From: Myxococcales bacterium
Lineage (GTDB): Bacteria; Myxococcota_A; UBA9042
NCBI GenBank assembly: GCA_947491025.1
Contig: CANLIC010000002.1
Location: 128,285-192,284 of the forward strand
Length of the DNA stretch: 64,000 bases
Direction of reading: 5' to 3'
In this document: piece by piece, positions 1,863-28,245 of the stretch
Layout: each line of letters begins with the position of its first letter
Position numbering within the stretch: position 1 is the first letter of the stretch
The notes under the pieces: generated by a model
The model's input: only the letters and a program-made list of their open reading frames with translations
Databases searched by the model: none
Told to the model about the DNA's origin: nothing
Position numbers and translations under genes: made by a program

Positions 1863-2052
1863 CGACGACCCCTTCTCAACTACGCGCAAATCCATCGGTC
1901 CTGACACGCGTCGCCGCGACGATGCGGCGGTCAGGGGCCGCGGGCGCGGGAGGTTACGGGCGCGCTGGCATTTTGTCGAGGACATTTTTCGGTGACGCCG
2001 ACGCGGCGCCTCGATTGCACCGATCGGAACCGTCCACCGCAGCAGTCGTCCC

Positions 2053-10912: not shown

Positions 10913-11191
10913 TCAGCGCGCAGGGGGCGCCGGAGTGACTGTTGCGGCCCGGCGCAATGCCTGCCCGCTCTCGCCGTAGACGCTCTGCCAGACGGCGACG
11001 GTGATGGTCCCGATGAGCCAAGCCGCCACCAGCCCATACAGGCCGTACAGCGTCACTCGAAACACCCGATACGCTGGGGGTTTATGCTCGACGCGCGTGG
11101 CACGCGCCCGCAACGCAGCGTCGCCGAGCGTCGCCTCGGCATCGGTCTCGGACTCAGGCGATGGCGGCGTCAACTCCACGGCTTCGCTCAT
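10913..11191 (-). CDS. Small single-pass membrane protein, hypothetical
   Basis: 92 aa with one hydrophobic helix (LYGLYGLVAAWLIGTITVAVW). Its ATG overlaps the upstream stop (ATGA at 11188-11191). Confidence 0.5.
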   Translation of the reverse strand: MSEAVELTPPSPESETDAEATLGDAALRARATRVEHKPPAYRVFRVTLYGLYGLVAAWLIGTITVAVWQSVYGESGQALRRAATVTPAPPAR

Positions 11192-14100
11192 TTGCCGTGG
11201 GCTCCGAGGGCGTCACGCAGGGCGCCGCCGCTCAGGGCCTGGTAGACGTCGCACACGGTCGGAATCGGCACGCCGCAGCGCTTCTCGCTGGCCAGGCAGA
11301 CGAAATCGAGCTGCAGGCTCTGGCAGGTGCCGCTGCCGGAGGCGAGCTTGCCGGTGGCCGGATCGCAGGCGGGCGAGCAGAAGGGCGGCGGGCCGAGTGG
11401 GGCGTTGTAGGCGCCGTCCCCGCCTCGGTCGAGCAAGATCGCGTTGGCGATGGCGTAGGGCCGCACCGGATAGAAGTCGGGGAAGCGCACGGGCGCCGGG
11501 AACACCGCGCTGACGAGCGGGATGTTCGAAAACGCCATCGATGCCACCCGCGGCAGCTGCAGCTCGCCGAAGGGCACGTCGAGGCTGATGGGCCGCATCC
11601 AATGCCGCTTGCCGCGGCCCATCGCGACCACGGCCACCCAGCTATCCCGGCCGGCGGGCGCGTCGAGCTCGAACGCGCCGTCGAAGTCGACGATCGCCTT
11701 CGGGTCGACGTCCAGCGTCTTGCGGGCCGCCACTTCGCCGTTCACGTAGACCTCGATGAGGTCGATGCCGTACCAAGAAGCGGTCTGGACGCGCACCCGC
11801 AGCTGCACTTTGCCGTCGCCGCCGACCGCCGCGACCTCGCCGGGGCCCTTGCCGCCGACGCTGGCCTCGATCAGCGGCCCATAGGAGGTCACCGCGTGGC
11901 CGGCGCGCAGGTTGCGGGCGATTGCCGCCGGGTCGATGGTCAGCGGCGTATCGCCTGCGCTGCGGATGTAGTTGCGCGGCGTACCCGGCTCCAGCGAGCC
12001 GTCGTGGCTGTCCGAGCCGCCGCTGGCGGTCTTGACCAGACCGTACTCGAGCATCCGCATCCAATCGGCGAGCGCGCCATTCCGCTCTCCGCAGGGGCGA
12101 TCGACGTCGCCGGGGGCGATGACGTTCTCGATCGGCTGGCTCAGCTTCTTCGGATCGAAGCGGCAGAGCTTGGTCAAATCCTCGAGCATCACGGCGGCTG
12201 CGGCGGCGTCGGCTCCTTCGGACTTTTGCCACTTGGCCTTCTCGTCCGGCGTGCGCTGCAGCTCGACCAGCCAGGCCTGCTGCTCCTCAGGACGCCGCAC
12301 CAGCATCGCGGTGTTCACCGCCACCGCCAGCGCCCGCCGATGCCGCATCTTGCAGGTGGCGATCGGCTCGCTGTCGCTGCAGTCGGCGAGGCGGCCGGCG
12401 ACGTCGAGCGGAAGAAACTCGGGCGTCTCCTGCAGCTCAGGCAGCGCCGCCAGCTCGGGGCAGGCAGTGGCCAGGGCGGCGCGGGCTTTCGCCGGGTCCG
12501 TGGTTGCCAAGGCGGCGTCGCGGCCGGCGTTGTCGATGCGGGTCAAGCAGCGCTCGTAGACGTGGATCTCGCGCACCGTCGGCGTGTGGATGAGGTCGAA
12601 GCGCTTGCCGTTGAGGACCTCCAGCGTGTCGAAGTCGCAGGTCGTGGTACGGAACACCGCGGTGTCGACCGCGCGGCCCTCTTCCTTCTCGTTGCCGTCG
12701 CGCATCCGCGTCAGCGTGTAGGGGTTGAGGTCGATCTGATCGGCCCAACCGAGGAAGCCGTCGCGGGGATGGGCGACGATGGTCGTCGCGCGATCGCTCG
12801 CCGCCTCGAATCCACTGCGCTCGAACGCCATCGCCTGCACGAGATCGTCGCTCGGCATGCAGTACCAGTCGACGGAGCCGTGGCTCGGCACATCCAGCTC
12901 TTTGTACTTGAAGGGGAATCCGATATAGTGACCGACATCCAGCGTCGAGACCTCCACGCCGATCACCGACTTCAGCCAGTCGTCGAGGCCGAGGGACCGG
13001 ATGATGGGGCCGAAGTCGGTGACCACGTCGTGATCGGTCGCCGCGGCGTAGTCGACACCTTCTGCGACGATGGTGCGCACGCGCTGGTCGAGCGCCATGC
13101 CGGAGTCGAAGCTGGGCCGCTGGTGGAGGTGGAAGTCGCTGCTGATCCACCCCTTGCTGTCCACCTCGTGCACCAGCGCCGCCGAGATGGGGAGCTGCTG
13201 CCCTTCGATCAGCGTGACGTCCTCAAGCCGAAACAGGCTGTACTCCGGGCCGTGGGAGGCGATGACCCGGTAGCGCCCCGGCGCCAGCGGCACGTCGGCC
13301 TCGCCGTCGGAAGCGAACGCGATGGCCTCGACGCCGCTGCCGATGCGACCCTGGCCCGCGAACACGCGGCGGTTGGCGTCGCCCTCGACGACCTCGCCAG
13401 TCGCGGACAGCGCCTGGACGGTGATCTTGGCCGGCAACGCCTGCCCACTGGCGTCGGTGATGCGCACCCGCAGCCGGGAAGGCGTCGGCAGCGTCAGCGC
13501 CACCACCTTGCGCTCGTCGGCGCCGACGTGAACCCGTACCGGCTTGCCAAAGACGATCGCCTGGGCATCGCGCGGAACCAGCAAGTAGTCGCCGACGGGC
13601 AACACGCTGGCGTAGTCGCCGTCCTCGATCTCGTCGACGCCCGGATCCGCGTCGATGGCCGAGACCACACCCGGCGAACCATCGATGGCGCGGTTGGCGG
13701 CGGCGACCTCATCGATCGTGGCGAATTCTCGGCTCGGATCGGGGTCGCGCATGACGAAGACGGTGGCGTTTTCGGCGCCACCATAGGTCTGGCCCCAGAG
13801 GACGACGCCCTCAATGCGCCCGGTCGCCATGCCGCGGTGGCCATACATCACCGACAGCACATCGGCGGCGTCGCCTCGACCCACAGTCAAAAAGCGCTCG
13901 TACTCGAAGACCCGCTGCCGATCGCAGCTCTCGTCATCGCTGGCGTCCTGCTTGCAGTTCAAGGTCGCAGCGACGAAGGGTGTCGCCGTGGACGTGAACA
14001 CCGGCACCCCCACCTTCGGGTCTGGATCCGACGCATTGCGCTTGATGGTGTAGTAGGCGTAGCTGACGTCGCCGCCCACCGCTGCCACGTAGTCGAAGAC

Positions 14101-15123
14101 GAAGGGCTTGGCGAAGGTGTCGCGACCATCGAACCAGGCCGTCCAGGTCGACTCCTCCTGATCGAAGCCAAAGTTCGGCACGAACTGCTTGTTGTGCTTG
14201 CCAAAGAACAAGAAGTCACCGCCGCCGATGCCGCCGCTGCGCTCGGTCTTCTTGGTGACGGGCAGCGAGTCGCCGAGGATGACGTCGATGACGCCCTCGT
14301 TGCCCCGGGTGACCGCCAACGGCACAACGTCGGAGCAGGTGCAGGTGTCGCAGCCGGCGGCGTCGCGCTGGCGGGCGAGGCAGGGACCCGGGCAATCCAG
14401 CTCCGGGCAGGCGCAGCGACCGACGATGTCGGCGGCCGCGGCCTTGGTGCAGGTCCTTCCAGCGGCGCAAGGCTTCTTGTCGGTGCAAGCGTCGCCCTCG
14501 GCAGGCGGATCCTTGAGGATGACCCGGGTCACCATGCGGACGAACTGCTCGCCAGGCCGCACGATGTAGTCGGTCTGGAAGCGCACGTCGGTCTTGACGT
14601 CCTTGAAGCCGATGGCGTTCAGCACCTCGAGGTTGTCGCGCAGCGCATACAAGCTGTGCAACATCGCGTAGCCATTGCCCTCGACCCGAATCGCCGCCTC
14701 GGCGCCGTCCTTGCCGTCACGGACCACCGAGATCTCGCTGCCCGTCGGCGCCGGAACCAGCAGGTTGGCGAGCGGAAAGACCTCGGCGAAGCGGTCGCGC
14801 CCGTGGCCCTCGGGGTATCTGCCGTCGCGCCGGCGGATGTCGAGGTCGACCAGGCTGCCGCCGAAGAGCCCAGGGCCCCAGGAGCGGCCGGTGTCGAGGA
14901 TCACCGCCCGCACCTTGTCGTTCTCGAGGACAAAGTCGCCGACGTCGCCATAGGCGACGGGGCCACCGACCAGCTCGCTGCGGCTGACAGCCCGCCGCGC
15001 CGAGAGCAGGTTCGGCTCTTCTTGCGCACAGCCCGAAGCCGCAACAGCGCCGAGCAGAAACGCGCCGAGCGCGGCCCAAGGGGAGGCCGCATCGCGACGA
15101 GCGAGAGCGGTTTGGCGCGACAT
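11188..15123 (-). CDS. Large lipoprotein with a PHP/CehA-McbA-type metallohydrolase domain
   Basis: Start set at the ATG at 15123 (MSRQTALARR...FLLGAVAASGC lipobox). SSDFHLHQRPSFDS and ASGGSDSHDG match the N- and C-terminal PHP metal-binding motifs. There is a Cys-rich insert: CTDKKPCAAGRTCT...CACPELDCPGPC...CDTCTC. Confidence 0.7.
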   Translation of the reverse strand: MSRQTALARRDAASPWAALGAFLLGAVAASGCAQEEPNLLSARRAVSRSELVGGPVAYGDVGDFVLENDKVRAVILDTGRSWGPGLFGGSLVDLDIRRRDGRYPEGHGRDRFAEVFPLANLLVPAPTGSEISVVRDGKDGAEAAIRVEGNGYAMLHSLYALRDNLEVLNAIGFKDVKTDVRFQTDYIVRPGEQFVRMVTRVILKDPPAEGDACTDKKPCAAGRTCTKAAAADIVGRCACPELDCPGPCLARQRDAAGCDTCTCSDVVPLAVTRGNEGVIDVILGDSLPVTKKTERSGGIGGGDFLFFGKHNKQFVPNFGFDQEESTWTAWFDGRDTFAKPFVFDYVAAVGGDVSYAYYTIKRNASDPDPKVGVPVFTSTATPFVAATLNCKQDASDDESCDRQRVFEYERFLTVGRGDAADVLSVMYGHRGMATGRIEGVVLWGQTYGGAENATVFVMRDPDPSREFATIDEVAAANRAIDGSPGVVSAIDADPGVDEIEDGDYASVLPVGDYLLVPRDAQAIVFGKPVRVHVGADERKVVALTLPTPSRLRVRITDASGQALPAKITVQALSATGEVVEGDANRRVFAGQGRIGSGVEAIAFASDGEADVPLAPGRYRVIASHGPEYSLFRLEDVTLIEGQQLPISAALVHEVDSKGWISSDFHLHQRPSFDSGMALDQRVRTIVAEGVDYAAATDHDVVTDFGPIIRSLGLDDWLKSVIGVEVSTLDVGHYIGFPFKYKELDVPSHGSVDWYCMPSDDLVQAMAFERSGFEAASDRATTIVAHPRDGFLGWADQIDLNPYTLTRMRDGNEKEEGRAVDTAVFRTTTCDFDTLEVLNGKRFDLIHTPTVREIHVYERCLTRIDNAGRDAALATTDPAKARAALATACPELAALPELQETPEFLPLDVAGRLADCSDSEPIATCKMRHRRALAVAVNTAMLVRRPEEQQAWLVELQRTPDEKAKWQKSEGADAAAAAVMLEDLTKLCRFDPKKLSQPIENVIAPGDVDRPCGERNGALADWMRMLEYGLVKTASGGSDSHDGSLEPGTPRNYIRSAGDTPLTIDPAAIARNLRAGHAVTSYGPLIEASVGGKGPGEVAAVGGDGKVQLRVRVQTASWYGIDLIEVYVNGEVAARKTLDVDPKAIVDFDGAFELDAPAGRDSWVAVVAMGRGKRHWMRPISLDVPFGELQLPRVASMAFSNIPLVSAVFPAPVRFPDFYPVRPYAIANAILLDRGGDGAYNAPLGPPPFCSPACDPATGKLASGSGTCQSLQLDFVCLASEKRCGVPIPTVCDVYQALSGGALRDALGAHGK

Positions 15124-15131
15124 CGGCGACC

Positions 15132-16694
15132 TCAGTAGCGCGCGGCGATCTTCGCCAGCAGCGTGTCGTTGTCGAAGACGGCGCCGTGCATCTCGCGGCG
15201 GTGGTCGTACTGCAGCTGAAAGCGCGCGCTGTTGCCGAGGAAGTGCCACGTCAGGGCCGCCGACAGCCACATCTCGTCGTCGCTGTTGTCGAGGCCCTTG
15301 TTCGGGTCGATGAGCTCCGTCCGCACCGCGACGCCGAAGCGGTGGTAGGTGTAGCCCACCTCGGCGCTGATGGCCTGCCGCTTGATGCTCTCGGGCAGCG
15401 TGCTGCCGGTGGTCGGCTGGTCAACCGGCTTGGCCTCATCGGCGATCCACTCGACCAGCAGGTGGGCGCCGGCCATTTTCACATGCAGATCCCCGGACAT
15501 CGCCATCACAAACGCGCTGCCGGAGTCGTTGACGTAGCTGCCGCCGCCGAGCGAGAGGCGCAGCGGACCGCCGTCGAGGTCGGCCACCGCATCGCCAACC
15601 GCGCCGAGCGGCTGCACCTGCAAGCGCAACGCGCCCGAGAGGCCGTGAAAGCGGTTGCCGCGCAGGCCAGCCGGGCTCTCGGCGCCCTGGTAGAAGGAGG
15701 ACTGGCGGTCGAAGCCGTTGTAGACGCCGGCGCGCCACGACAAGCCCGCGAGATCGTAGTCGCCGCCAATGGTAACGCCGACCTGCCGGAAGGGCGCCAT
15801 CGCGTCCGCGGCGCGAGCGCGCTCGGAGAGTCCGGCATCGGCCGAGCTCAAGATGGCCGAGTAAGAGAAGGGCACGGTCGCGACGCCGAACCACATCTTG
15901 GCGAAGCGGTAGCGATCGTAGCTGAGGAAGGCATCGGTCAACGCGCCGCCGGTGCCAGCCTGCGCGCCGGCCTGGGCCGCTGCGAGATCGGTCACCAGCA
16001 CGTAATGCAGGTTCGAGCTCAAGTCGCCGCGGGCGCCGAGTCGGGCGCGCGGAATGGCGAATCCCGGGCGCTCAGCCAGGTCGCCGCGAACGCGCTGGTT
16101 GTCATCGCCGGTCACCAGCGCCGCACGCAGCTCGATGCGGGCAACCGGGCGGAAGGTGGCTTCGCCGTTCCGACACACCGGAGCCTTCACCTGCCGCTGC
16201 CCACAACGGCGCCCGGCCTTCGAGCCGCCGCAGCAGCCCGCCGCCGCGCCGCTGCGATCGCCATGACCCTTGCAGTCAGCGCCTGCGCCGCCGCCCTCCT
16301 TGTCGCAACAGTCGCCGCCACCGCTGGCCTTGCCGCAGTCCGCCTTGTGCGCAGCGTCCTTGCCGCAGCAGTCCTTGCCGCCGCCGTGCTTGCCGCAATC
16401 GGCTTTGTCGCCGCCGTGCTTGCCGCAATCGGCTTTGTCGCAGCCGTGCTTGCCGCAGTCGGCGCCGCCGCTTGGCTTGCTACCGCAGCAGTCCCCAGCC
16501 TTCTGAGCAGCGGGCGCTCCAGCCTCGGCATGTGCCGCCGCCGGCGCGGGGTCGCTCGATGGCGGCGTAGGCGGCGCAGCCTCGTTGGCCGGCGCGGCGG
16601 ACGGCGCGGGTTCGTCAGCAGCGGCGGCCATCGGCAACACCGACAAGCACACCGCCGCCAAGACAGTGGTCCAAAGGGAAACTCGCATCGACAT
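15132..16694 (-). CDS. Outer-membrane porin (OprO/P-like beta-barrel) with a Cys/His-rich N-terminal extension
   Basis: Start set at the ATG at 16694 (MSMRVSLWTTVLAAVCLSVLPMAAAA signal), after GAGGAGG. About 105 aa of (D/K)ADCGKHGG-type repeats are followed by alternating beta-strand-like sequence ending ...LLAKIAARY with an aromatic C-terminus. Confidence 0.65.
   Translation of the reverse strand: MSMRVSLWTTVLAAVCLSVLPMAAAADEPAPSAAPANEAAPPTPPSSDPAPAAAHAEAGAPAAQKAGDCCGSKPSGGADCGKHGCDKADCGKHGGDKADCGKHGGGKDCCGKDAAHKADCGKASGGGDCCDKEGGGAGADCKGHGDRSGAAAGCCGGSKAGRRCGQRQVKAPVCRNGEATFRPVARIELRAALVTGDDNQRVRGDLAERPGFAIPRARLGARGDLSSNLHYVLVTDLAAAQAGAQAGTGGALTDAFLSYDRYRFAKMWFGVATVPFSYSAILSSADAGLSERARAADAMAPFRQVGVTIGGDYDLAGLSWRAGVYNGFDRQSSFYQGAESPAGLRGNRFHGLSGALRLQVQPLGAVGDAVADLDGGPLRLSLGGGSYVNDSGSAFVMAMSGDLHVKMAGAHLLVEWIADEAKPVDQPTTGSTLPESIKRQAISAEVGYTYHRFGVAVRTELIDPNKGLDNSDDEMWLSAALTWHFLGNSARFQLQYDHRREMHGAVFDNDTLLAKIAARY
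16381..16470. repeat. 30-bp tandem repeat (2 exact copies plus 1 degenerate) inside the porin Cys/His region
   Basis: ccgccgtgcttgccgcaatcggctttgtcg occurs at 16381 and 16411. A variant lies at 16441. It encodes DKADCGKHGG on the minus strand. Confidence 0.8.
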
Positions 16695-17720: not shown

Positions 17721-19781
17721 CTACTTGTAGTTGGCCTGGTACCACACTTCCATCTCAACCGTGCTCCAGTTGTACGACCCGCAGATGTCGTTTCGGCACG
17801 CGGTGGTGCCGTAGCCGCTCCAACCGTTGTCGCCGTCCACGACCTTGCGGCAGTCATAGTCGTGGCCGAGGTTGCAGTACCCGGTGGCCATGTCGTTGCT
17901 GTTGAAACAGAAGTCGTGCCCGCCGCCGAAGCAGGGCCCGTAGTTGGTGTGGTTGTAGATCGAGTAGCCGTGCGAGAACGTGTTCTGGTGGCCGTGGTAG
18001 AAGTTCTTCTTCACGTACTTGTGGCCATTGTCGAGGTTGAACAAGAACGAACCTTGGCAGTGGCGCGTGTACTCGTTGTAGTTGGCGGTCCACGGGCACG
18101 AGGCGTAGCCGCCGACACGGGCGCCTGTGTTCAGCTTGGCCACGACGACGGTCGGGCCCTTGTTGTTGCAGTTGTTGTGGAAGGCGCCAGCGCTCTTGCC
18201 CTCAGACCAGCGGTGGCAGAGCTTCCACTGCATCGCCGAGTTGCCGAACATCTCATTGATCATCCGACCGTCCGCGGCGGTGACGACCTTGGAGCCGAGG
18301 AACGGGTGCGCGAACGTGATCGGCATCCAGCCGTCGGGCGTGCACAGCTCGACGACACCGCCCTGGTAGCGCATGGTGCCGGCGTTGTTGCTGTCGCAGG
18401 TCACCGCCGATGGGCCAAGGCCAAGGCCAGCCCCCACCCACAGCGTACCGCCCGCGGTGCCGTGGCCATTCTCTTTGCCCCACGCCTTGCCGCCGACGTA
18501 GAGATCGCCGGCGAGATTGACCTTCTTGTTGCTCAGCGTCTTGATCTTGACGTGCCACTTGACGATGGTGCCGTCGACCTTGTTGGCCGGATCGCAGATG
18601 CCAGCGTTGCCCGGCGCCTGGACGATGCAGAACGCCGTGTCGAGGGCCTTGAGGTTCCACAGACCCTTGGGGTTGGCGCCGATCCACTTCAAGAGGTCGC
18701 CGCTCTTCGGCTTGTTCTGGCTGTTGAAGGTGACCTTGTAGTCCTTCTTGTCCTTCTCCCCACAAGGATCGCAGAGCACCCAGCCGGTCTTCTTGTCGTC
18801 GGGCGGAAGGACGGTGAGCGAGAGGGTCGAGAGGTCGGTGTTGGAGACTTCGACGTAGATCTCAAAGTCCTGCGTGGTGCCAATGTCCGGGAAGTCCAGC
18901 GTCGCGTTGGCCTCAGAGCCGGTGTTGTCCGGGATCTTGATGCCGGACTGGCCGACGATGACGTCGTCAAACTGGTTGCTCAGCAGGTTGTTCGAGATCT
19001 CGTTGAGGCCGTCCTTCGGCAGCGCCGCCGGGTCGAGCGACGCCACGCACTTCAGGCTGCCGTCGGCGTTGATGCCCTTGACCACCTCACCAGCGACCTT
19101 GCACTCGCCAGCCGGCGTCTTCAGGCCCGTCAGCTTGCTGCCGTCGCCGACGAACTCCGCCGCCGCCACCGTGCCCGAGAACGTGCCGTTCTTGGCCTTG
19201 AACGAGTTGCCGGCGAGGTCGACATCGCCGTCGAACTTCAGATCGCTGACGTTGACGCAGCCGCTGCACTCGACGTCAGCTGCCGCGCCACCCTTGGTCG
19301 CGGAGCCGGCATAGTTGAAGCCCACCTTCGCCGCCGCCACGCCACCGTTGGCGAGGTGGTCGGAGCCGATGCAACCCACGCAGCTCACCTTGCCGGCCTC
19401 GGTGGCCACCAGCGCCATCAGCGACCCGTGCAGGCGCTGCCGGGGCAGCTCGGGATCGCTAGCCACCTTCATACCGAGCCACTGCTCCTTGAGCGCCGCC
19501 ACCTTGGCGAGGTCGAGCGGCGTCGCGGAGCCGAGGGCGTGGCTGAAGCGGCCACCGGTCACCTTGACCTTCGCCGTCTCCGTCCACGTCGCAGTGCCGC
19601 CGCTGTTGGCTTCGTAGATGGCGAAGGCGACGTCATAGTCACCGTCCGCCGCCGCCGAGCCGCCGGAGCTGAGCAGGGCGCCGTCGATGAGGGAGGTGGT
19701 CGGCAGTGCGGCGAGGGCCGGCGCGGCCCAAAGAAGTGCCGCCATGAGGGTCGCCCGAAGGCCAGCGCTGAGGGTTCGCAT
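17721..19781 (-). CDS. Secreted fibre-like protein A: conserved stalk, P-domain-like module and TLDc-like C-terminal head
   Basis: Start set at the ATG at 19781 (MRTLSAGLRATLMAALLWAAPALA|ALPTTSL) after GGAG. It has CxGC motifs, FVGDGSKLTG and a proprotein-convertase P-domain-like block (IPDNTG...TDLSTLSLTVLPP...GLWNLKALD...GTIVKWHVKI). The C-terminus reads WKLCHRWSEGKSAGAFHNNCNNKGPTVVVAKL...GGYASCPW...GSFLFNL...GPCFGGGHDFCF. Confidence 0.8.
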   Translation of the reverse strand: MRTLSAGLRATLMAALLWAAPALAALPTTSLIDGALLSSGGSAAADGDYDVAFAIYEANSGGTATWTETAKVKVTGGRFSHALGSATPLDLAKVAALKEQWLGMKVASDPELPRQRLHGSLMALVATEAGKVSCVGCIGSDHLANGGVAAAKVGFNYAGSATKGGAAADVECSGCVNVSDLKFDGDVDLAGNSFKAKNGTFSGTVAAAEFVGDGSKLTGLKTPAGECKVAGEVVKGINADGSLKCVASLDPAALPKDGLNEISNNLLSNQFDDVIVGQSGIKIPDNTGSEANATLDFPDIGTTQDFEIYVEVSNTDLSTLSLTVLPPDDKKTGWVLCDPCGEKDKKDYKVTFNSQNKPKSGDLLKWIGANPKGLWNLKALDTAFCIVQAPGNAGICDPANKVDGTIVKWHVKIKTLSNKKVNLAGDLYVGGKAWGKENGHGTAGGTLWVGAGLGLGPSAVTCDSNNAGTMRYQGGVVELCTPDGWMPITFAHPFLGSKVVTAADGRMINEMFGNSAMQWKLCHRWSEGKSAGAFHNNCNNKGPTVVVAKLNTGARVGGYASCPWTANYNEYTRHCQGSFLFNLDNGHKYVKKNFYHGHQNTFSHGYSIYNHTNYGPCFGGGHDFCFNSNDMATGYCNLGHDYDCRKVVDGDNGWSGYGTTACRNDICGSYNWSTVEMEVWYQANYK

Positions 19782-19854
19782 GGTCCCAATCTCCAACTTG
19801 AGCCGGAGGTCCGCTCAAGTGCGTCCGCGGACTGCTGCGGCTCGCGAAGCTTCG

Positions 19855-21804
19855 CTACTTCGACAGCGGTCCGACGTAGTGAATCTGGTAGCGGCTGTGG
19901 TGCCCGTTCGCATTCCAGCTGTGGAACGGGTAAGGGTTGCAGCTGCCCGAGTAGTACTGAACGTAGAACGAGTCACCCGCCTTGAGCGGCCACACCTGGT
20001 CGACCTGAATGTGATGCCAGCTGGCGTCGTGGTTGTGCTCGTGAGTGTAGTAGCGGCTCGTGCCGTTGATGATGAGCTGCACGTGCTTGTGGCCGCAGCC
20101 ATGCGAGATGCCCCAGCTGTGGATGCGGTAGTAGCCAGAGATCTTCACCTTGACCGTCGCGCCGCCGTCGATCGTCAAGTAGTCCTGCGCGGTGTTCCAC
20201 TCGGTGGCATTGGTGCAGTAGTCGTACCAACCGGAGTGACCCGCCGGCTGGTTGGTACAACCGCCAGACCACATCACCGGCACCGAGGTTGCAGGGCGCC
20301 AGACGTAGCCAGCGACCTTGTCCGCGTTGTCGATGTTGGCGTCACAGACCTGCATGCCGAGCTTGGTGTCCCAACGAAGCGTGCCCACCGCGGCGGCGTC
20401 GCACGTCGGCTTGGCGTCCGCAAGCTTCACGTAGGCGTTGGCAATGTGGAGCTGGCCACCGGGATTGCCGTGGCCGTTGTCCTTGCCCCAGAGCTTGCCG
20501 GCGATGTAGACGTCACCGTTGAGGTTCACCTTCTTGCTCGACAAGGTCTTGATCTTGATGTGCCACTTCACGATGGATCCGTCGGTTTTCGCGGCGACAT
20601 CGCAGATCGCGGCGTTGCCCGGCGCCTGAACGAGGCAGAAGGCGGTGTCGAGGGCCTTGAGGTTCCAGACGCCCTTCGGGTTGGCGCCGATCCACTTCAG
20701 CAGATCGCCGCTGGCCGGCTTGTTCTGGCTGTTGAAGGTCACCTTGTAGGTCTTCTCGTCCTTCTTGCCGCAGGGGTCGCAGAGCTTCCAGCCGGTCTTC
20801 TTGTCGTCCGGCGGCAGCACGGTCAGCGCGAGCGTAGACAGGTCCGTGTTGGCCACCTCGACGTAGAGCTCGAAGTCCTGGCTGAGGCCGATGTCCGGGA
20901 AGTCCAGGGTTGCGTTGGCGTCGGCGCCCGTGTTGTCGGGGATCTTGACGCCAGCGGCGCCGGCGATGGTGTCCTCGAACTGGTTGCTCAACAGATCGTT
21001 CGAGATCTCGTTGAGGCCGTCCTTCGGCAGCGCCGCCGGGTCGAGCGACGCCACGCACTTGAGCGAGCCGTCGGCGTTGATGCCCTTGACCACCTCGCCA
21101 GCGACCTTGCACTCGCCGGCGGGTGTGGCGATGCCGGTGAGCTTGCTGCCGTCGCCGACGAACGCGGCCGCGGTGACGTTCTTGGCCGTCACATCGCCGC
21201 TGAAGGTGCCGTTCTTGGCCTTGAGCGAGTTGCCGCCGAGATCGACATCGCCGTCGAAGCTGAGCTCGGCGACGCCGACGCAGCCGGTGCAATCGAGGTC
21301 GGCCGCCGCGCCGCCCTTGGTCGCAGCGCCGGCGTAGTTGAAGCCCACCTTGGCGGCGGCGATGCTACCATTGGCGACGTGGTTCGAGCCCACGCAGCCG
21401 TCGCAGGTCACCGACAGCGCCGTGTTGGCGACGAGGCTGGTCAGCGCAGCGTGCACGGCCTGGCGGGGAAGCTCCGGGTCGTTGCCGACCTTGACGCCTA
21501 GGAAGTGCCCGGCCAGCGGCAGGAGCTTCGAGAGGTCGATGGGCTTCACGCTGCCGAGGGCGTGGGTGAAGCGGCCCCCGGCGACCTTGATCTTCGCCGT
21601 CTCCGACCAAGCAGCGTTGCCGCCCTGGATCTCCGCGTAGATCGCGAAGGTCACGTCGTAGTCGCCGTCCGCCGCCGGCGAGCCGCCGGTGGAGGTCAGG
21701 ACGCCGTCGACAAGGGAGGTCGTCGGCAGCGCTGCGAGGGCCATTGCCGGCGCCAACGTGAGCGCCAGGGTCAGCAGATGCATGATCGGACTTGAGCGTC
21801 GCAT
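19855..21804 (-). CDS. Secreted fibre-like protein B: conserved stalk, P-domain-like module and C1q/TNF-like C-terminal head
   Basis: Start set at the ATG at 21804 (MRRSSPIMHLLTLALTLAPAMALA|ALPTTSL) after GGAAGGAGA. The stalk is about 90% identical to C at nucleotide level by eye. The C-terminus reads ISGYYRIHSW...HVQLIINGTS...LKAGDSFYVQYY...SRYQIHYVG. Confidence 0.8.
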   Translation of the reverse strand: MRRSSPIMHLLTLALTLAPAMALAALPTTSLVDGVLTSTGGSPAADGDYDVTFAIYAEIQGGNAAWSETAKIKVAGGRFTHALGSVKPIDLSKLLPLAGHFLGVKVGNDPELPRQAVHAALTSLVANTALSVTCDGCVGSNHVANGSIAAAKVGFNYAGAATKGGAAADLDCTGCVGVAELSFDGDVDLGGNSLKAKNGTFSGDVTAKNVTAAAFVGDGSKLTGIATPAGECKVAGEVVKGINADGSLKCVASLDPAALPKDGLNEISNDLLSNQFEDTIAGAAGVKIPDNTGADANATLDFPDIGLSQDFELYVEVANTDLSTLALTVLPPDDKKTGWKLCDPCGKKDEKTYKVTFNSQNKPASGDLLKWIGANPKGVWNLKALDTAFCLVQAPGNAAICDVAAKTDGSIVKWHIKIKTLSSKKVNLNGDVYIAGKLWGKDNGHGNPGGQLHIANAYVKLADAKPTCDAAAVGTLRWDTKLGMQVCDANIDNADKVAGYVWRPATSVPVMWSGGCTNQPAGHSGWYDYCTNATEWNTAQDYLTIDGGATVKVKISGYYRIHSWGISHGCGHKHVQLIINGTSRYYTHEHNHDASWHHIQVDQVWPLKAGDSFYVQYYSGSCNPYPFHSWNANGHHSRYQIHYVGPLSK

Positions 21805-21842
21805 GAGAGTTCTCCTTCCTGCTTGGAATGTCGCGCTGCGGC

Positions 21843-23810
21843 TTAGAACGTGGGCGTCTTGTTCTCGTGCCAGCGTCCGGTGTACTCGATCTGCAGGCGG
21901 CTGTGCGCCGTGCCCGTGTCCCAGTGGTGCCAACGGTGTGGGTTGCAGCCGTCACCGTGGGCCTGGATCTGCACGACGTCACCAGCGCGGAGCGGCCATT
22001 GCAGGTCGGCGTAGTGGCTCGACCAGTTGTGGTTCTCGACGTCGTTGTTGTGGAAGTAGGCGCGCTGGGCCCCGTTGATGAATAGACGCAGATGCTTGCT
22101 GCCGCAACCATACTGGATCGTAAAGAAGTTGAAGCGATAGACGCCGCTCTTCTTGATGGTGACATTGCCTGCACCGGCGTCGCTGATGGTGAGATAGTCG
22201 TCGGCGGTGGTGTAGTCGACCCCGTCGAGGCAGTAGGCGGCCCAGCCGTTCTGACCTGCGGGGTGCGTCTTGCAGCCGCCCGACCACATGACCTTGCGCG
22301 GCACCGCGACGAACCATCCGTGGGTCAGCGTGCCGGCCTTGTCATACTGCTGGTCGCAGACCTGCATGCCGTAAACCGCGTCCCAGCGCATCGTGCCCAC
22401 GCCCTTGGCATCGCAGGTCGGGGTGTCGGACGCCAGCTTGATGTTGGCGTTGGCGATGTGCAGCGCGCCGCCATCGTTGCCGTGGCCGTTGTCCTTGCCC
22501 CAGAGCTTGCCGGCGATGTAAACGTCGCCGTTCAGGTTCACCTTCTTGCTCGACAGCGTCTTGATCCTGATGTGCCACTTGACGATCGAGCCGTCGGTCT
22601 TGGCGGCGACATCGCAGATGGCCGCGTTCCCGGGCGCCTGAACGAGGCAGAACGCGGTGTCGATCGCCTTGAGGTTCCAGGTGCCCTTCGGGTTGCCGCC
22701 GATCCACTTCAGCAGGTCGCCGCTCAAGGGCTTGTTTGCGCTATTGAAGGTCACCTTGTAGGCCTTCTCGTCCTTCTTGCCGCACGGATCGCAGAGCTTC
22801 CAGCCGGTCTTCTTGTCATCTGGCGGCAGAACGGTGAGCGCGAGCGTCGACAGGTCGGTGTTGGCGACCTCGACGTAGAGCTCGAAGTCCTGGCTGACGC
22901 CGATGTCCGGGAAGTCCATGGTCGCGTTGGCCTCTGCGCCCGTGTTGTCCGGAATCTTGACGCCGGCGGCACCCGCGATGGTGTCCTGGAACTGGTTGCT
23001 CAACAGATCGTTCGAGATCTCGTTGAGGCCGTCCTTCGGCAGTGCGCTCGGATCGAGCGCCGCGACGCACTTCAGCGAGCCATCGGCGTTGATGCCCTTG
23101 ACCACCTCCCCGGCGACCTTGCACTCGCCGGCCGGCGTGTTGATGCCGGTCAGCTTGCTGCCGTCGCCGACGAATGCGGCCGCCGTGACGTTCTTGGCCG
23201 TCACGTCGCCGCTGAAGGTGCCGTTCTTGGCCTTGAGCGAGTTGCCGCCGAGGTCGACGTCGCCGTCGAAGCTGAGCTCAGCGACCCCGACGCAGCCGGT
23301 GCAATCGAGGTCCGCGGCCGCGCCACCCTTGGTCGCGGCGCCCGCGTAGTTGAAGCCCACCTTGGCGGCGGCGATGCTGCCATTGGCGACGTGGTTCGAG
23401 CCCACGCAACCGTCGCAGGTCACCGAGAGCGCCGTGTTGGCGACGAGGCTGGTCAGCGCCGCGTGGATGGCCTGACGCGGTAGCTCCGGGTCGCTGCCGA
23501 CCTTGACGCTGAGGAAGTGGCCGTTGAGCGGCAGCAGCTTGCTGAGGTCAATAGGCTTGGCGCTGCCGAGCGCGTGCGTGAAGCGACCCCCGGCGACCTT
23601 TACCTTGGCCGTCTCGGACCAGGCGGCGTTGCCACCTTGGATCTCGCCGTAGATGGCGAAGGCCACGTCGTATTCGCCGTCCGCTGCCGGCGAGCCGCCG
23701 GTGGACGTTAGGACGCCGTCGACGAGCGAGGTCGTCGGCAGCGCCGCGCCCGCCGTCAGGGGCAGTCCCATTGCCGCCACCACGCTCACAAACCAGGTCT
23801 TGATACGCAT
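21843..23810 (-). CDS. Secreted fibre-like protein C: conserved stalk, P-domain-like module and a divergent C1q/TNF-like C-terminal head
   Basis: Start set at the ATG at 23810 (MRIKTWFVSVVAAMGLPLTAGA|ALPTTSL) after GGAGTGA. The C-terminus reads KSGVYRFNFF...HLRLFINGAQ...LRAGDVVQIQAHG...SRLQIEYTG. Confidence 0.8.
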   Translation of the reverse strand: MRIKTWFVSVVAAMGLPLTAGAALPTTSLVDGVLTSTGGSPAADGEYDVAFAIYGEIQGGNAAWSETAKVKVAGGRFTHALGSAKPIDLSKLLPLNGHFLSVKVGSDPELPRQAIHAALTSLVANTALSVTCDGCVGSNHVANGSIAAAKVGFNYAGAATKGGAAADLDCTGCVGVAELSFDGDVDLGGNSLKAKNGTFSGDVTAKNVTAAAFVGDGSKLTGINTPAGECKVAGEVVKGINADGSLKCVAALDPSALPKDGLNEISNDLLSNQFQDTIAGAAGVKIPDNTGAEANATMDFPDIGVSQDFELYVEVANTDLSTLALTVLPPDDKKTGWKLCDPCGKKDEKAYKVTFNSANKPLSGDLLKWIGGNPKGTWNLKAIDTAFCLVQAPGNAAICDVAAKTDGSIVKWHIRIKTLSSKKVNLNGDVYIAGKLWGKDNGHGNDGGALHIANANIKLASDTPTCDAKGVGTMRWDAVYGMQVCDQQYDKAGTLTHGWFVAVPRKVMWSGGCKTHPAGQNGWAAYCLDGVDYTTADDYLTISDAGAGNVTIKKSGVYRFNFFTIQYGCGSKHLRLFINGAQRAYFHNNDVENHNWSSHYADLQWPLRAGDVVQIQAHGDGCNPHRWHHWDTGTAHSRLQIEYTGRWHENKTPTF

Positions 23811-23958: not shown

Positions 23959-26900
23959 CTACTTGCCGAGCAGCGAAAGGACCCAGCCGAAGAAGCCGAA
24001 GTCCGCGCTGTTCTTAGCATCTTGCGGCGCTGGGGCCTTGCCCGCCACGTTGCTCATGCCGATCTGTGCCTGCATGCCGAACTTGTCGCCCTTGCTCGAG
24101 AGCGAGCCGTTGCCGTGCCGCGCCACGAACGCCGTCGGGGCGCAGCCCTCGTCGGTGATACCGTCGCAGTCGTTGTCCTTGCCGTCGCAGAGCTCCTCGG
24201 TCGGGCCCTTGTCGCCCTTGCAGACGCCCAAGGAGCCGTCGGCCTGGCAGAGCTTGACGCCGTCCTTGCACTCGCCCTTGCCGCGTGTCTTGGCGTCGTG
24301 GCTGTAGCAGGCATCCGAGAGGTTGGTGTTGACGACGTTGGCGCAGCCCTTGCTGGTGCTGCAGCTGTCCTCCGTGCAGACATTGCCGTCCTCGCAGGTC
24401 AGCGTCTTGCCCGCGATGCAAACCCACGCGCCGCTGGCGTTCTTGCCGCAGTTGTCGCCCGAGGTGCAGGCGTTGTCGTCGCTGCAGGACTGAATGAGCT
24501 CCTTGAAGCCGCACTTGCCGGTGGTCGTGTCGCAGCTATCGGAGGTGCACGGATTCTTGTCGTCGCAGGTGGTCTGCTTGCCCGCCACGCACTTGCCGGA
24601 CTGGCAGGCGTCGCCCGCGGTGCAGGCGTCGTCGTCGGCGTTGCAGTCCCCGCCCTGCGCGGTGTGGACGCAGCCCAGCTTGGGATCGCAGGAGTCGGCG
24701 GTGCAGGCATTCTTGTCGTCGCAGACCAAGAGCTTGCCGGGCTTGCAAGCGCCGGCGGCGCACGCGTCCTGCGTGGTGCACAGCGACTCATCTGCGTCAC
24801 AGGAGGCGCCGTCGGTTTTGAGCGTTGCGACGCACTTGCCGAGCTTCACGTCGCAGTCGGTCTTCTTGCAGAAGTTGTCCGAAGACGTGTCGCAAGCGAT
24901 CACGGTCACGGGGTTGATCTTGCACTGCTTGTCTTTGTCGCAGAAGAGCGTGCCGTTGCAAGCGTTGCCGTCTTCTTTGCCGGCGCAGTCGAGGTCCTTC
25001 TCGCAGCCGCAGGTGTTGGCGCCGCCCTTGCACTTGCCCTGGACGCAGGCGTCGTTCTGCGTGCAGCTGTTGCCGTCGTCGCAGGTCTTGCCGTCGAGGA
25101 CCTTGTTGAGGCAGCCGGACTTGCTGTCGCAGACGTCGAGCGTGCAGTCGTTGCCGTCGTCGCACTTGACCTTGTCGTTGAACGGCGCGCCCTTGCAGAT
25201 GCCGCCCTGGCAGGCGTCGAGCTCCGTGCAGGCGTCGTCGTCATTGCAGGGGCCCGACAGCGGCGTCGCGACACATCCGGCCTTGGGATCGCAGGCGTCC
25301 GACGTGCAGGTGCTCTTGTCGTCGCAGGTCAGGAGCGGACCGGGCTTGCAGATGCCGTCGGTGCAGGCGTCGGTGGTGGTGCAGACGTTGTCGTCGGCCT
25401 TGCACGGCGTGCCGTCCTTCTCTTTGCTGATGCCGCACTTGCCCGAGGTCGGGTTGCAGGCGTTCTGCTGGCAGGTTGAGTTCAGCGAGGTGTCGCAGTT
25501 GACGACGGTGCCGGGGTTGACCTTGCACTGGAAGGGCTGCGCGGACTTGTCGCAGTACAGCGTGCCGTTGCAGAGGTTGCCGTCTTCTTTGCTGGCGCAG
25601 TCGATGTCGGCGTTGCAGCCGCAGGTGTTGACGCCGGCAGCGCACTTGCCGTCCTTGCAGAAGTCATTCTTGGTGCAAGCGTTGCCGTCGTCGCAGATCG
25701 CGACATCGTCTGCGTTGTGGACGCAGCCCTTCTCGGCGTCGCAGACGTCGGTGGTGCAGGGGTTTCCGTCGTCGCACTTGACCTTGACGTCGATGGGCTG
25801 GCCGGCGCACTTACCCTTGGCGCAGCTGTCGCCGGCGGTGCAAGCGTTGCCATCCTCGCAGTTGGCGCCGTCGCCGACGGACGAGAAGATGCACCCCTTG
25901 ACCGCGTCGCACTGGTCGGTGGTGCAGGGATTCTTGTCATTGCAGTCCAGGTTCTTGCCACCCACGCAGGTGTAGAGCTTGGTGGTCGGTTCGACCCCGC
26001 AGGCGTCGTCGGTCGTGCAGAGGTTGGCGTCGTCGCACTTGTCGACGCGCGGCTTGTTGGCGCACTTGCCCGTCGCCTTCTCGCACAGATCGTCGGTGCA
26101 GAACTCCTTGTCGTCACAGTCCTTGCCCTTGCCGGGGACGCAGGTGCCGCTGGCGCAGACGTCGAGGACGGTGCAGGAGTCGCCGTCGGCGTCGCAGGGC
26201 GTGGTGTTCGGTTTGAACGAGCAGCCGTTCTTTGCGTCGCAGGCGTCGTCTGTGCAGGGGTTCTTGTCGTCGCAGCCAACGAGCGCGCCAGTCTGGCAGG
26301 TGCCGGCCTTGCACTGATCGTCCTTGGTGCACACCGAGCTATCCGAGTCGCAGGGCTTGCCGTCGGTCGCTTGGGTGATCGCGCACTTGCCGGTGGACGC
26401 GTTGCAGGCGTTCTGCTGGCACTCGCCGTTCAGGCTGGTGTCGCAGGCGACCACGGTGGTCGGCTTGACTTTGCACTGGAAGGGCTTGGCGCTGATGTCG
26501 CAGAAGAGCGTGCCGTTGCACAGGTTGCCGTCTTCCTTGGTCGCGCAGTCCTTGTCCGCCTCGCAGCCGCAGTTGTTGGGGCCTGAGATGCACTTGCCGT
26601 TCTGACAGGCGTCGTTGAGCGTGCAGACGTTGCCGTCGTCGCAGGGGCCGGCGATTTTGGGCGTGTGGACGCAGCCGGCCTTGGCCTCGCAGCTGTCGGT
26701 GGTGCAGGCGTCGTTGTCGTTGCAGCTTGCGGTGACATCGATCGCGATGCCGACGCACTTGCCGGCTTCGCAGTTGTCCTTCTGGGTGCAGGAGTCGGCG
26801 TCGTTGCAGGGGCCCGCGGCGGCCTTGTGGAGGCAGCCCGTCGCCGGATCGCAGCTGTCGGCGGTGCATGGGCTGCCGTCGTCGCAGTTCACCGCGCCGC

Positions 26901-28245
26901 CCTTGCAGGTCTCTTGGGCGCACAGCTCATTGGACGTGCAGGGGTTGCCGTCGTTGCAGGGCTGACCGTTCTTGTTGTTGTACGTGCACTTGCCGTCTGC
27001 CAGGTTGCACTTGCCGAGCATGCAGGTGTCGCCGGAGTCGCAGGCCTTGGCGCTGCCGGCGAGGCAGGTGCCGTCCTTGCACTGGTCGGCGACCGTGCAG
27101 GGGTTGTCGTCGGCGTTACAGGGATCGCCGCTGGCCGGCGCGGTCTGGCAGCCGAGCTTGGCGTCGCAACTGTCGTTGGTGCAGGGATTGGCGTCGTTGC
27201 AGGCCTTGGCCGCGCCAGCCTTGCACTTGCCGGCGTCGCAGCTGTCGTTCTCGGTGCAGATCGAGCCGTCGGCATCGCAGGGTGCGCCGGTGTTGGCGTT
27301 GTGCGTGCAGCCCTTGTCGCCACTACAGGCGTCGGTGGTACAGGGGTTTCCGTCGTCGCAGGTGCCGTCGTCGGTCTTGCCGTTGCAGTCGTTGTCGACG
27401 CCGTCGCAAGTCTCGGTGGAGGCCTTGGGGGCGTCGCAGGCGGTCAGGCCGCCACCGTCAGGGGCGCCAGGCGCGCCGGCAGGCAGACAGGTCCGGCTGC
27501 CAGCGCACGTGCCGCCGTTGCTGTGGGGCACGTGGCAGGTGGTGGTCGCGCCCGCGGCGATGGCGCCCGGCGAGCACGCGCAAACTTCATTCGGCGGCAT
27601 CACGCAGTACTTCGCGGACTTGCCGGTGATGTCGGTGGCGGTCTCGCAGAGGGCCCCTTGCGGGCAGTCGACGGTGCTGTTGCAGCTGTTGCCGCAGAAT
27701 GAACCGTCGTTGCCACGCTTGATGCACGCGGCGTTGAGGGCGCCGGCGGCGCCGCAGCTGTCGTTGGTCGTGCAAGGGGCGCAGTGGGTGGCGAATTTGG
27801 GGACGCAGACCTTGTCTACCGCGCTGCCCGTGCCCGCGATCTCGACGCAGGTCTCACCCTCAGGACAAGCGCCGTCGTCGCACTTCTGAGCGCAGACTTT
27901 GGTGGCCTTGCCGGCCTGGATGCAGTGGCCAGAGTAGCAGCCGTCGTCCGCCTTGCACTCGCAGCCGGGGCCGCCAGGGCAGGAAAGGGAGACCTCCGCG
28001 CCGTCCACGGCGGTGTCGCTTTCGACGGTGTCGACGCCGACGGTGTCACCCGCCACGTCGCTGCCTTCGCCGACATCGCCCGCCGTGACGTCGGTGCCGC
28101 CGGTGCTGGTTTCCTCGCCTTCCACCGTGGTGTCGCCGTCGCCGCAGCCGATGGCCAGGACTGCGAGAAATGTGAACGCAACGACCAGCCGAAGGGGCTG
28201 TGGCGCTGTGCACGCGCCAAGCTGCAAACGCAGGAAGTCGTTCAT
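23959..28245 (-). CDS. Giant Cys-rich repeat lipoprotein (1428 aa; CTDC-like CDDGNxCTxDxC repeats, two CDGxDNDC(D/N)G motifs)
   Basis: Lipobox FLAVLAIGC, then an acidic linker, then roughly 13% Cys by hand count. It has three super-repeats, each opening with CGC(E/N)xDxDCAxKEDGNxCNGTLxCD. Its C-terminus reads ELCDGKDNDCDGITDEGC...ADFGFFGWVLSLLGK. Confidence 0.85.
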   Translation of the reverse strand: MNDFLRLQLGACTAPQPLRLVVAFTFLAVLAIGCGDGDTTVEGEETSTGGTDVTAGDVGEGSDVAGDTVGVDTVESDTAVDGAEVSLSCPGGPGCECKADDGCYSGHCIQAGKATKVCAQKCDDGACPEGETCVEIAGTGSAVDKVCVPKFATHCAPCTTNDSCGAAGALNAACIKRGNDGSFCGNSCNSTVDCPQGALCETATDITGKSAKYCVMPPNEVCACSPGAIAAGATTTCHVPHSNGGTCAGSRTCLPAGAPGAPDGGGLTACDAPKASTETCDGVDNDCNGKTDDGTCDDGNPCTTDACSGDKGCTHNANTGAPCDADGSICTENDSCDAGKCKAGAAKACNDANPCTNDSCDAKLGCQTAPASGDPCNADDNPCTVADQCKDGTCLAGSAKACDSGDTCMLGKCNLADGKCTYNNKNGQPCNDGNPCTSNELCAQETCKGGAVNCDDGSPCTADSCDPATGCLHKAAAGPCNDADSCTQKDNCEAGKCVGIAIDVTASCNDNDACTTDSCEAKAGCVHTPKIAGPCDDGNVCTLNDACQNGKCISGPNNCGCEADKDCATKEDGNLCNGTLFCDISAKPFQCKVKPTTVVACDTSLNGECQQNACNASTGKCAITQATDGKPCDSDSSVCTKDDQCKAGTCQTGALVGCDDKNPCTDDACDAKNGCSFKPNTTPCDADGDSCTVLDVCASGTCVPGKGKDCDDKEFCTDDLCEKATGKCANKPRVDKCDDANLCTTDDACGVEPTTKLYTCVGGKNLDCNDKNPCTTDQCDAVKGCIFSSVGDGANCEDGNACTAGDSCAKGKCAGQPIDVKVKCDDGNPCTTDVCDAEKGCVHNADDVAICDDGNACTKNDFCKDGKCAAGVNTCGCNADIDCASKEDGNLCNGTLYCDKSAQPFQCKVNPGTVVNCDTSLNSTCQQNACNPTSGKCGISKEKDGTPCKADDNVCTTTDACTDGICKPGPLLTCDDKSTCTSDACDPKAGCVATPLSGPCNDDDACTELDACQGGICKGAPFNDKVKCDDGNDCTLDVCDSKSGCLNKVLDGKTCDDGNSCTQNDACVQGKCKGGANTCGCEKDLDCAGKEDGNACNGTLFCDKDKQCKINPVTVIACDTSSDNFCKKTDCDVKLGKCVATLKTDGASCDADESLCTTQDACAAGACKPGKLLVCDDKNACTADSCDPKLGCVHTAQGGDCNADDDACTAGDACQSGKCVAGKQTTCDDKNPCTSDSCDTTTGKCGFKELIQSCSDDNACTSGDNCGKNASGAWVCIAGKTLTCEDGNVCTEDSCSTSKGCANVVNTNLSDACYSHDAKTRGKGECKDGVKLCQADGSLGVCKGDKGPTEELCDGKDNDCDGITDEGCAPTAFVARHGNGSLSSKGDKFGMQAQIGMSNVAGKAPAPQDAKNSADFGFFGWVLSLLGK

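Follow-up and report, generated by a model that had tools for sequence, protein, structure and literature searches.

We analyzed a 64-kb stretch of Myxococcales DNA (the window, meaning the whole 64,000-nucleotide stretch) and found in it a tandem triplet of genes, g1, g2 and g3, whose products share a conserved body, called here the stalk, and end in C-terminal heads that differ. The reading that we favor, with moderate confidence, is that the triplet encodes exported, probably trimeric binding proteins in which one body is combined with heads of alternative specificity that are exchanged by recombination. The triplet is a tandem array within a large multigene family of uncultured Myxococcota, and recombination at the body/head junction occurs in this family. 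Modular recognition proteins with swappable tips are a known kind of mechanism; what is new here is the chassis (N-terminal domain, conserved Cys segment and P-domain) and the set of heads in uncultured Myxococcota, neither of which was found described in the literature searched. The three genes, given in the direction of transcription, are as follows.

23810 to 21843, minus strand: g1, first of the triplet, 655 amino acids (aa); predicted exported modular protein, conserved stalk with a C1q-like head.
21804 to 19855, minus strand: g2, 649 aa; predicted exported modular protein, conserved stalk with a C1q-like head.
19781 to 17721, minus strand: g3, last in the transcription direction, 686 aa; predicted exported modular protein, conserved stalk with a TLDc head.

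From stop to start, 38 bp separate g1 from g2 and 73 bp separate g2 from g3, and a GGAG-like ribosome-binding site lies ahead of the g2 start and of the g3 start. A scan of the locus for promoters and terminators gave nothing above shuffled sequences, and the GC content of the window is high (65-73%). The signal peptides of g1, g2 and g3 (MRIKTWFVSVVAAMGLPLTAGA, MRRSSPIMHLLTLALTLAPAMALA and MRTLSAGLRATLMAALLWAAPALA, respectively) are unrelated in sequence; they were called by eye from their n-h-c layout and A-x-A site, with cleavage predicted, all three end in A-x-A, and in the alignment a common mature start, ALPTTSL(V/I)DG, follows. The shared body is about 450 residues long. Over the 420-430 or so residues after the mature start g1 and g2 are 94% identical, and g3 is about 76% identical to either of them in the three-protein alignment. 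Similarity among the three then falls at residues ~445-455, and in the C-terminal 150-190 residues g1 and g2 are 47% identical and g3 cannot be aligned with either. This contrast in identity between stalk and head is far beyond chance. Since the same triplet is present in a near-identical public metagenome-assembled genome (MAG; GCA_947503025.1), where independent gene calls give proteins of 655, 649 and 686 aa, and contigs of several assemblies, of 285 kb and 290 kb among others, carry triplet proteins too, the triplet is not an assembly accident. An earlier sequence-only reading of this DNA had described three co-directional genes with gaps of 73 and 38 bp, different signal peptides ahead of the same mature N-terminus, two CxGC(V/I) motifs, an FVGDGSKLTG motif and a neck of the pattern TCDxxxxGT(M/L)R(W/Y)...C; the genes are all present at those positions on the minus strand, and the alignment contains each of the other elements.

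The body was divided into the following parts, for which the g2 coordinates are given first.

21733 to 21804 (g2 aa 1-24, A-L-A/A site), 23745-23810 in g1 and 19710-19781 in g3, minus strand: Sec-type signal peptide, read from the sequence.
21451 to 21732 (g2 aa 25-118), 23463-23744 in g1 and 19428-19709 in g3, minus strand: N-terminal beta-rich domain (N-domain), all-beta in an AlphaFold2 model.
21019 to 21450 (g2 aa 119-262), 23031-23462 in g1 and 19011-19427 in g3, minus strand: conserved Cys-containing segment, from motifs and alignment.
20530 to 21018 (g2 aa 263-425), 22542-23030 in g1 and 18522-19010 in g3, minus strand: P-domain-like beta-sandwich, from the AlphaFold2 model and a structure search.
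20290 to 20529 (g2 aa 426-505, TCDxxxxGTLRW...C), 22305-22541 in g1 and 18291-18521 in g3, minus strand: pre-neck and neck, from alignment and model.

An AlphaFold2 monomer model of g2 was built with 120 homologs (mean predicted local distance difference test score, pLDDT, 82; head about 90). In this model the stalk consists of two compact beta-sandwiches joined by a highly conserved, low-confidence segment of ~100 residues. The first of them, the N-domain, is all-beta with a pLDDT of about 93-97. A profile of the N-domain (112 positions) matched 31,743 representative proteins at E<=1e-3, of which 8,265 also reach E<=1e-10, and the best 150 of the 31,743, which were the ones listed, all belong to the family. 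The N-domain is therefore a domain family of very large size that lacks curation, with no fitting model in Pfam, NCBIfam or PHROG, and these databases have no model of the whole stalk either. In the PDB, sequence searches gave marginal matches to NEAT domains (E 0.002-0.05), which we regard as uninformative. The Cys segment that follows contains a helix, two CxGCV motifs, FVGDGSKLTG, a disulphide hairpin (after aa 230) and ISNxLLSNQF. Within it, g2 aa 132-230 (window 21115-21411, minus strand) is the most conserved stretch of the family, with a mean column entropy of 0.91 bits, and it has the lowest monomer pLDDT of the model, about 52. Because the highest conservation and the lowest monomer confidence coincide here, we infer that the fold of aa 132-230 depends on oligomerization or on a partner; such a low score in the most conserved segment of a monomer model is the behavior expected of intertwined fiber segments. 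In g3, aa 125-235 gave a weak PHROG tail-fiber match (E 0.024).

The second sandwich, modeled with a pLDDT of about 94-98, finds its best PDB matches in the Kex2, furin and Aeromonas ASP P-domains (about 160 columns aligned, E 2.6e-6), and Pfam P_proprotein gives sub-threshold matches in 19 of 62 family members. The P-domain of proprotein convertases is the best structural match of stalk aa 263-425, but the family has no subtilisin catalytic domain: a Pfam scan of the window proteins and the 62 family members found no protease domain (peptidase S8/subtilisin), no collagen repeat and no Peptidase_S74 in any member. The P-domain-like sandwich thus appears to serve as a stalk module from which the catalytic subtilisin domain is absent. 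Identity between the paralogs drops within the pre-neck and neck; the neck is modeled as a small beta unit (pLDDT about 88 in g2), and at its position related proteins give N-terminal matches to Pfam COLFI/Fibrinogen_C.

The heads begin after the neck and are of two types in the triplet.

21846 to 22304 (g1 aa 503-655), minus strand: gC1q-like head of g1, from identity to the g2 head and weak profile matches.
19858 to 20289 (g2 aa 506-649), minus strand: gC1q-like head of g2, from the AlphaFold2 model and Foldseek.
17724 to 18293 (g3 aa 497-686), minus strand: TLDc head of g3, from Pfam PF07534.

The modeled g2 head superposes on gC1q domains in the PDB (Foldseek E 1e-8 to 1e-6, TM-score TMt 0.83-0.85, root-mean-square deviation 2.2-2.6 A), its structural matches including C1QL1/3, Cbln1 (cerebellin), C1q, the NC1 domains of collagen VIII/X, adiponectin and TNF ligands. 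The model has the ten-strand jelly-roll fold of gC1q, to which the g1 head is assigned through its identity to g2. No match of the g2 head to Pfam C1q was found, and one relative reaches E 2.9e-5. The g1 head stays below threshold, with 14 bits against a cut-off of 23.7 for Pfam C1q (PF00386; E 0.06) and E 0.051 for BclA_C (aa 541-620), and it matches PHROG 7551 at E 3.4e-5; other PHROG matches of the window proteins are weak (E 0.02-0.5). Heads of this type carry an extra N-terminal Cys pair (WSGGC...YC), and the head of a relative with a divergent stalk (P0266) is 74% identical to that of g1. The g3 head matches Pfam TLD (PF07534) at E 1.4e-14 and 54.9 bits, against a cut-off of 24.5, over aa 498-680 and model positions 6-167 of 170, and it matches NCBIfam PEP_CTERM_TLD_A (NF038124) at E 5.8e-21, below the cut-off of that model; orthologous TLDc heads, 53-68% identical, sit on the same stalk in other MAGs. 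The sequence-only reading had assigned a TLDc head, C1q/TNF-like heads and a P-domain-like sandwich, and all three assignments hold: the first by a Pfam score well above the cut-off, the second by the g2 model, with the sub-threshold Pfam C1q and BclA_C matches confined to g1, and the third by the Kex2, furin and ASP matches. It had also held that the two C1q-like heads differ strongly; they have indeed diverged, but their alignment at 47% identity makes them divergent versions of a single head type. The protein with the TLDc head, which it had labeled A, is the one transcribed last.

In order to place the triplet in its family, we searched protein sequences with g2, which gave 340 homologs, of which the best 120 all have the stalk. 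Across GTDB species, each represented by a single genome, 419 encoded relatives were found, and locus statistics were taken from the best 80 of these. The 80 loci come from 11 MAGs labeled Myxococcales, Myxococcota or Deltaproteobacteria, some being titled Enterobacteriaceae, and three MAGs supply at least 10 of these loci each, which is a lower bound on the number of paralogs per genome. Most copies are dispersed, and about one-fifth of the loci have two copies within 10 kb. Many family copies are carried by MAG records titled 'uncultured Enterobacteriaceae bacterium' (L004, L005, L008, L012, L016, L021, L033, L034, L057 and others); this label is probably a submission artefact. When the C-terminal tails were clustered and scanned against Pfam, the same stalk was found with at least 11 head types, so that variable, independently folding C-terminal tips that include a C1q-like one are a property of this family as they are of the mosaic adhesive trimers discussed below. 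The recognizable types are the C1q-like head of g1 and g2, TLDc, a COLFI/Fibrinogen_C-like head (23 of 62 members), CTHRC1_C (E 1.4e-39 in one scan, best 2.5e-45), Cys-rich DUF4215 repeats, and the phage tail Collar (Pfam E 4e-14; phrog_523 E 4e-41). CTHRC1_C itself has a C1q-like fold (PMC7058181). At least five further head clusters of 150-390 residues have no Pfam match (types P0017, P0009, P0019, P0084 and P0089).

The case for recombination at the body/head junction rests on DNA-identical tracts in two related loci, since dating by synonymous divergence is unreliable here. In a soil scaffold (L085; ENA BUCK21-1 scaffold_11091, 3-3388), a tandem pair of family genes shares at least 840 bp of 100% identical DNA, and the identity ends at a sharp breakpoint right after the P-domain ('...SSKKIQIKG'), past which gene one continues into a neck and a C1q-like head 74% identical to the g1 head and gene two into a phage tail Collar. 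At the second locus (L002; GCA_964586155.1, 9900-14723), the genes of P0002 and P0023 are 100% DNA-identical over the first ~120 codons, with identical signal peptides and N-domains, and 98 of 100 bp are identical upstream. Farther along the stalk the two diverge progressively, and they end in unrelated heads, one being C1q-like and the other a four-repeat domain of unknown type. Because both the 5' ~120 codons and the upstream 100 bp are identical or nearly so, the sequences of this pair indicate recent gene conversion that included the promoter region. The window genes themselves give conflicting relationships for stalk and head: g1 and g2 are 94% identical in the stalk and 47% in the head, while g2 and P0002, which is from another MAG, are only 71% identical in the stalk and 91% in the head. 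A syntenic locus in MAG HK-STAS-MYXO-50, with the same flanks as the window (valyl-tRNA synthetase, HupE-like and Dicty_CTDC proteins, and HhH-GPD), has two genes (C1q-type and TLDc) where the window has three.

By the Nei-Gojobori method, the proportion of synonymous differences (pS) between g1 and g2 is 0.30 in the stalk and 0.51 in the head, which agrees with a stalk younger than the head, and the g2-type head shows a nonsynonymous divergence (dN) of 0.05 at a pS of 0.47, indicating strong purifying selection; comparisons at synonymous sites are, however, near saturation here and confounded by a GC content at third codon positions (GC3) of about 0.9. For the same reason, dating of the g1/g2 head against the stalk from synonymous divergence (dS) was rejected as unreliable. 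As a separate observation, both L085 copies have a reading-frame break in common beside a C5 run (CACCCCCG), which could be a sequencing error, a common pseudogenizing indel or slippage. Modularity across related loci was the key test of the sequence-only reading, and many heads on the same stalk, with sharp recombination junctions, bear it out. Its picture of a conserved shaft with exchangeable tips holds insofar as the same stalk carries swapped heads, but in the monomer model the stalk is two compact sandwiches and not a classical fibrous shaft. Its comparison with BclA applies to the head fold and fails for the stalk, which has no collagen repeats.

The gene directly upstream of the triplet lies on the same strand, 148 bp from g1.

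23959 to 28245, minus strand: Dicty_CTDC Cys-rich repeat protein, 1428 aa, with an apparent lipobox (LAIGC); Pfam Dicty_CTDC E 1.2e-44.

Relatives of this gene lie immediately upstream of a family member, on the same strand, in about a dozen of 82 loci (among them L001, L003, L007, L010, L016, L018, L027, L030, L046, L047 and L057), and these gene pairs form at least two paralogous cassette types. A second Dicty_CTDC-type protein of about 950 aa follows the fiber gene in four loci, and L085 also ends in one. Because the adjacency recurs across related loci, this association of genes suggests that the Dicty_CTDC protein is a functional partner, and possibly an anchor; no sorting-signal model was found by NCBIfam in the neighboring Cys-rich proteins. 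Otherwise the window is ordinary chromosome, encoding Lon, short-chain dehydrogenase/reductase, tetratricopeptide-repeat and porin-like proteins, an HhH-GPD glycosylase, a class-I aminoacyl-tRNA synthetase, a Ser/Thr kinase, MgtE, a dNK-domain protein, a glycerol-3-phosphate oxidase-like protein and a tRNA-Ala. ARAGORN and Rfam agree on a tRNA-Ala(ggc) at 51317-51391, and a tRNA-Ala(cgc) called by ARAGORN at 2359-2431 (minus strand), inside an open reading frame with an APP1_cat domain and unconfirmed by Rfam, is probably a false positive. At 11188-15270 (minus strand), the window encodes a 1360-aa protein that has no Pfam match; close to its C-terminal end is a metallohydrolase domain of the CehA/McbA family (NCBIfam E 6.5e-33), and the protein is conserved in the syntenic locus L084.

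The sequence-only reading had named no described family; the nearest described concept is the mosaic adhesive trimer (MAT), a superfamily of Bdellovibrio fibers (Caulton et al. 2024, PMC10769870). As in MATs, a conserved beta-rich N-domain (~95 aa here, ~130 aa in MATs; the two are likened by position and beta content) comes directly after a Sec signal peptide, each genome has numerous paralogs, the tips at the C-terminus vary, some being TNF/C1q-like, and the hosts are predatory; swapping of tips has been proposed for MATs as well. The two also meet in a relative of the g1/g2 head: in the fragment P0265 a canonical 'NVGIGTTAPASALHV' motif stands directly before the same neck and C1q head as in the g1/g2 type. 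This motif is the MAT/S74 capping-loop consensus, to be compared with 'NLGLGTAAPTSALH' of Bd2133, and it reads V-G-G/N-pi-x-x-P-x-x-x-L; the S74 subgroup of MATs has an S74 chaperone/protease domain (PMC10769870). In g1 and g2 there is only a degenerate 'GHGNPGGQLHI' ahead of the neck and no Peptidase_S74 match. A search with the N-terminal 74 residues of P0265 for a full-length MAT-like carrier of its head returned one 97-aa fragment only, and a scan of metagenome contigs for MAT genes gave nothing with the start-codon primer of Bd2740 and one random non-coding match (L083) with that of Bd1334. The window proteins differ from MATs in length (650-690 aa against about 1000), in having neither an S74 domain nor a long beta-helix or coiled-coil shaft, in a body with a P-domain-like sandwich and a conserved CxGC-containing segment, and in TLDc, CTHRC1_C and COLFI/fibrinogen-like heads, which are not listed for MATs.

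The C1q-like head is also found outside the family chassis, because it is carried by P0267 (L086 7264-8013, Logan SRR12897917), a 249-aa protein that consists of a transmembrane helix, a 'TVSAAQMNQNFD' collar-like helix and the same head, and whose gene adjoins a Phage_lysozyme gene and a Peptidase_C14 protein. In the L085 stalk variant, part of the Cys segment is replaced by repeats of the type TGSYNDLKDLP/TGSYADLTNQP, which we take to be a hallmark of tail fibers, and in PHROG the variant stretch (aa 147-232) resembles families of unknown function (E 1e-9). These two cases and the motif of P0265 are sequence links that point to tail-fiber-like proteins. The likeness to phage receptor-binding proteins or tail fibers and to the fibers of extracellular contractile injection systems (eCIS) lies in a conserved attachment end with exchangeable tips (C1q, Collar), recombination between shaft and tip, and tandem multi-fiber loci. 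The family genes differ from these in being chromosomal and Sec-exported, with no particle genes nearby and no members in viral collections. Proteins such as C1q, C1QL, cerebellin and BclA also carry a C-terminal globular head on an N-terminal stalk, and the g2 head superposes on gC1q; unlike them, the window proteins have an extra N-terminal Cys pair and no Gly-X-Y collagen-like stalk, their sequence similarity is below the Pfam C1q threshold, and because collagen repeats are missing the analogy with BclA is limited to the head fold. Among TLDc proteins (OXR1/NCOA7 and the PEP-CTERM-anchored bacterial TLD proteins of NF038124), the g3 head passes Pfam TLD and resembles NF038124, but it is below the cut-off of that model, has no PEP-CTERM anchor and is fused behind the family stalk.

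In the mechanism that we propose, Sec would export each protein, as the predicted signal peptides suggest, and the invariant body would serve for assembly and attachment, probably as a trimer that may dock on a cell-surface partner, for which the Cys-rich repeat lipoprotein encoded alongside is a candidate. What is bound would be set by the head. Recombination at the body/head junction, together with homogenization of the body within a genome, would then produce one chassis with a repertoire of alternative specificities, by the same logic as in phage receptor-binding proteins, eCIS fibers and MAT fibers, directed at varied targets such as prey surfaces or glycans. The trimeric state is probable by analogy, because the head folds are trimeric tips in known contexts: C1q/TNF, CTHRC1_C, COLFI and Collar domains form trimers where they have been studied (PMC7058181, PMC10769870). 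Cell-surface display, partner, ligands and biological role of the triplet proteins are what we infer from these comparisons, and the extracellular, trimeric recognition or adhesion fibers of the sequence-only reading are likewise a probable reading by analogy. An extension, unlikely and speculative, is an undescribed, lineage-specific surface recognition system of Myxococcota in which the chassis would sit on the Cys-rich lipoprotein and cassette-like recombination would shuffle a library of heads that elsewhere mark innate-immune and matrix proteins of animals (C1q, fibrinogen/COLFI-like, CTHRC1, TLDc). The heads would provide a combinatorial pattern-recognition repertoire for prey or kin, and the family could be a bacterial reservoir or source of such 'metazoan' domains.

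Several points weigh against the reading of exported trimeric binding proteins with exchangeable heads. Trimerization is drawn by analogy from the head folds, and neither a coiled coil nor repeats of the beta-helix or collagen type occur in the stalk. TLDc, the head of g3, is not known as a trimeric or lectin tip, nor for a binding role in bacteria. According to the model, two of the three stalk parts are compact globular domains, which in proteases are monomeric, and because the stalk is mostly compact sandwiches, with no long shaft in the window proteins, 'fiber' may not be the right picture. For g1-g3, neither a route across the outer membrane nor an anchor was identified, and a periplasmic location is possible. 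The window triplet fits a head swap as well as an old duplication followed by fast divergence of the heads, the two not being cleanly separable, and the sharp junctions come from related metagenomic contigs, in which an assembly error induced by repeats is conceivable.

A possible but unlikely alternative is that these are self-assembling matrix, coat or nap proteins, in which the heads (C1q/NC1-like, CTHRC1_C, COLFI-like and possibly collagen-IV-NC1-like) nucleate oligomers or networks, so that the family would build an extracellular matrix, a spore coat or a surface layer as animal collagens and BclA do. Many of the head types are indeed domains that trimerize or network animal collagens (PMC7058181), collagen VIII/X NC1 trimers are among the top Foldseek matches, there are many paralogs per genome, and very large surface proteins with Cys-rich repeats are encoded alongside. 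However, the stalk has neither collagen nor other polymer-forming repeats, and the turnover of heads and the presence of Collar and TLDc heads fit a binding repertoire better than a lattice; the strong purifying selection on one head across genomes fits either model. It is improbable that the triplet belongs to a polymorphic effector or toxin family, with the N-terminal body as a delivery module and the C-terminal domains as cargo against competitor or prey cells. Myxobacteria use polymorphic toxin systems (SitA, outer-membrane exchange), and such toxins are typically recognized by a conserved N-terminal part, a hypervariable C-terminal part and recombination where the two meet, but the spacers of 38 and 73 bp leave no room for immunity genes, and all identified heads are binding or assembly folds and not nucleases, deaminases or pore formers. 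An Ntox21 match in a single relative (E 0.042) was judged not credible. That these are tail fibers of a phage, prophage or eCIS is highly improbable and largely refuted: modular fibers with C1q tips have been catalogued for eCIS and multi-fiber loci are enriched in Myxococcota (PMC12923769), BFVD gives structural matches to phage tail and collagen-repeat proteins, and one relative has a Collar head, but each protein has its own Sec signal peptide, the window contains no phage or contractile-injection genes (sheath, tube, baseplate, capsid or terminase), searches of IMG/VR and, by tblastn, of the 50,697 phage records of INPHARED gave no relatives, and the locus is syntenic and chromosomal in other MAGs.

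If the triplet and its relatives are surface recognition proteins, as in the reading that we favor, uncultured predatory Myxococcota gain a "one chassis, many tips" repertoire like those of MATs and phages. The sharp stalk/head junctions are a concrete example of cassette exchange in a chromosomal multigene family, and the heads are candidate glycan- or cell-binding modules. The C1q-like, CTHRC1_C, COLFI/fibrinogen-like and TLDc domains are familiar above all from animal proteins, and the abundance of such heads on one bacterial chassis bears on the origin and movement of recognition and assembly domains.

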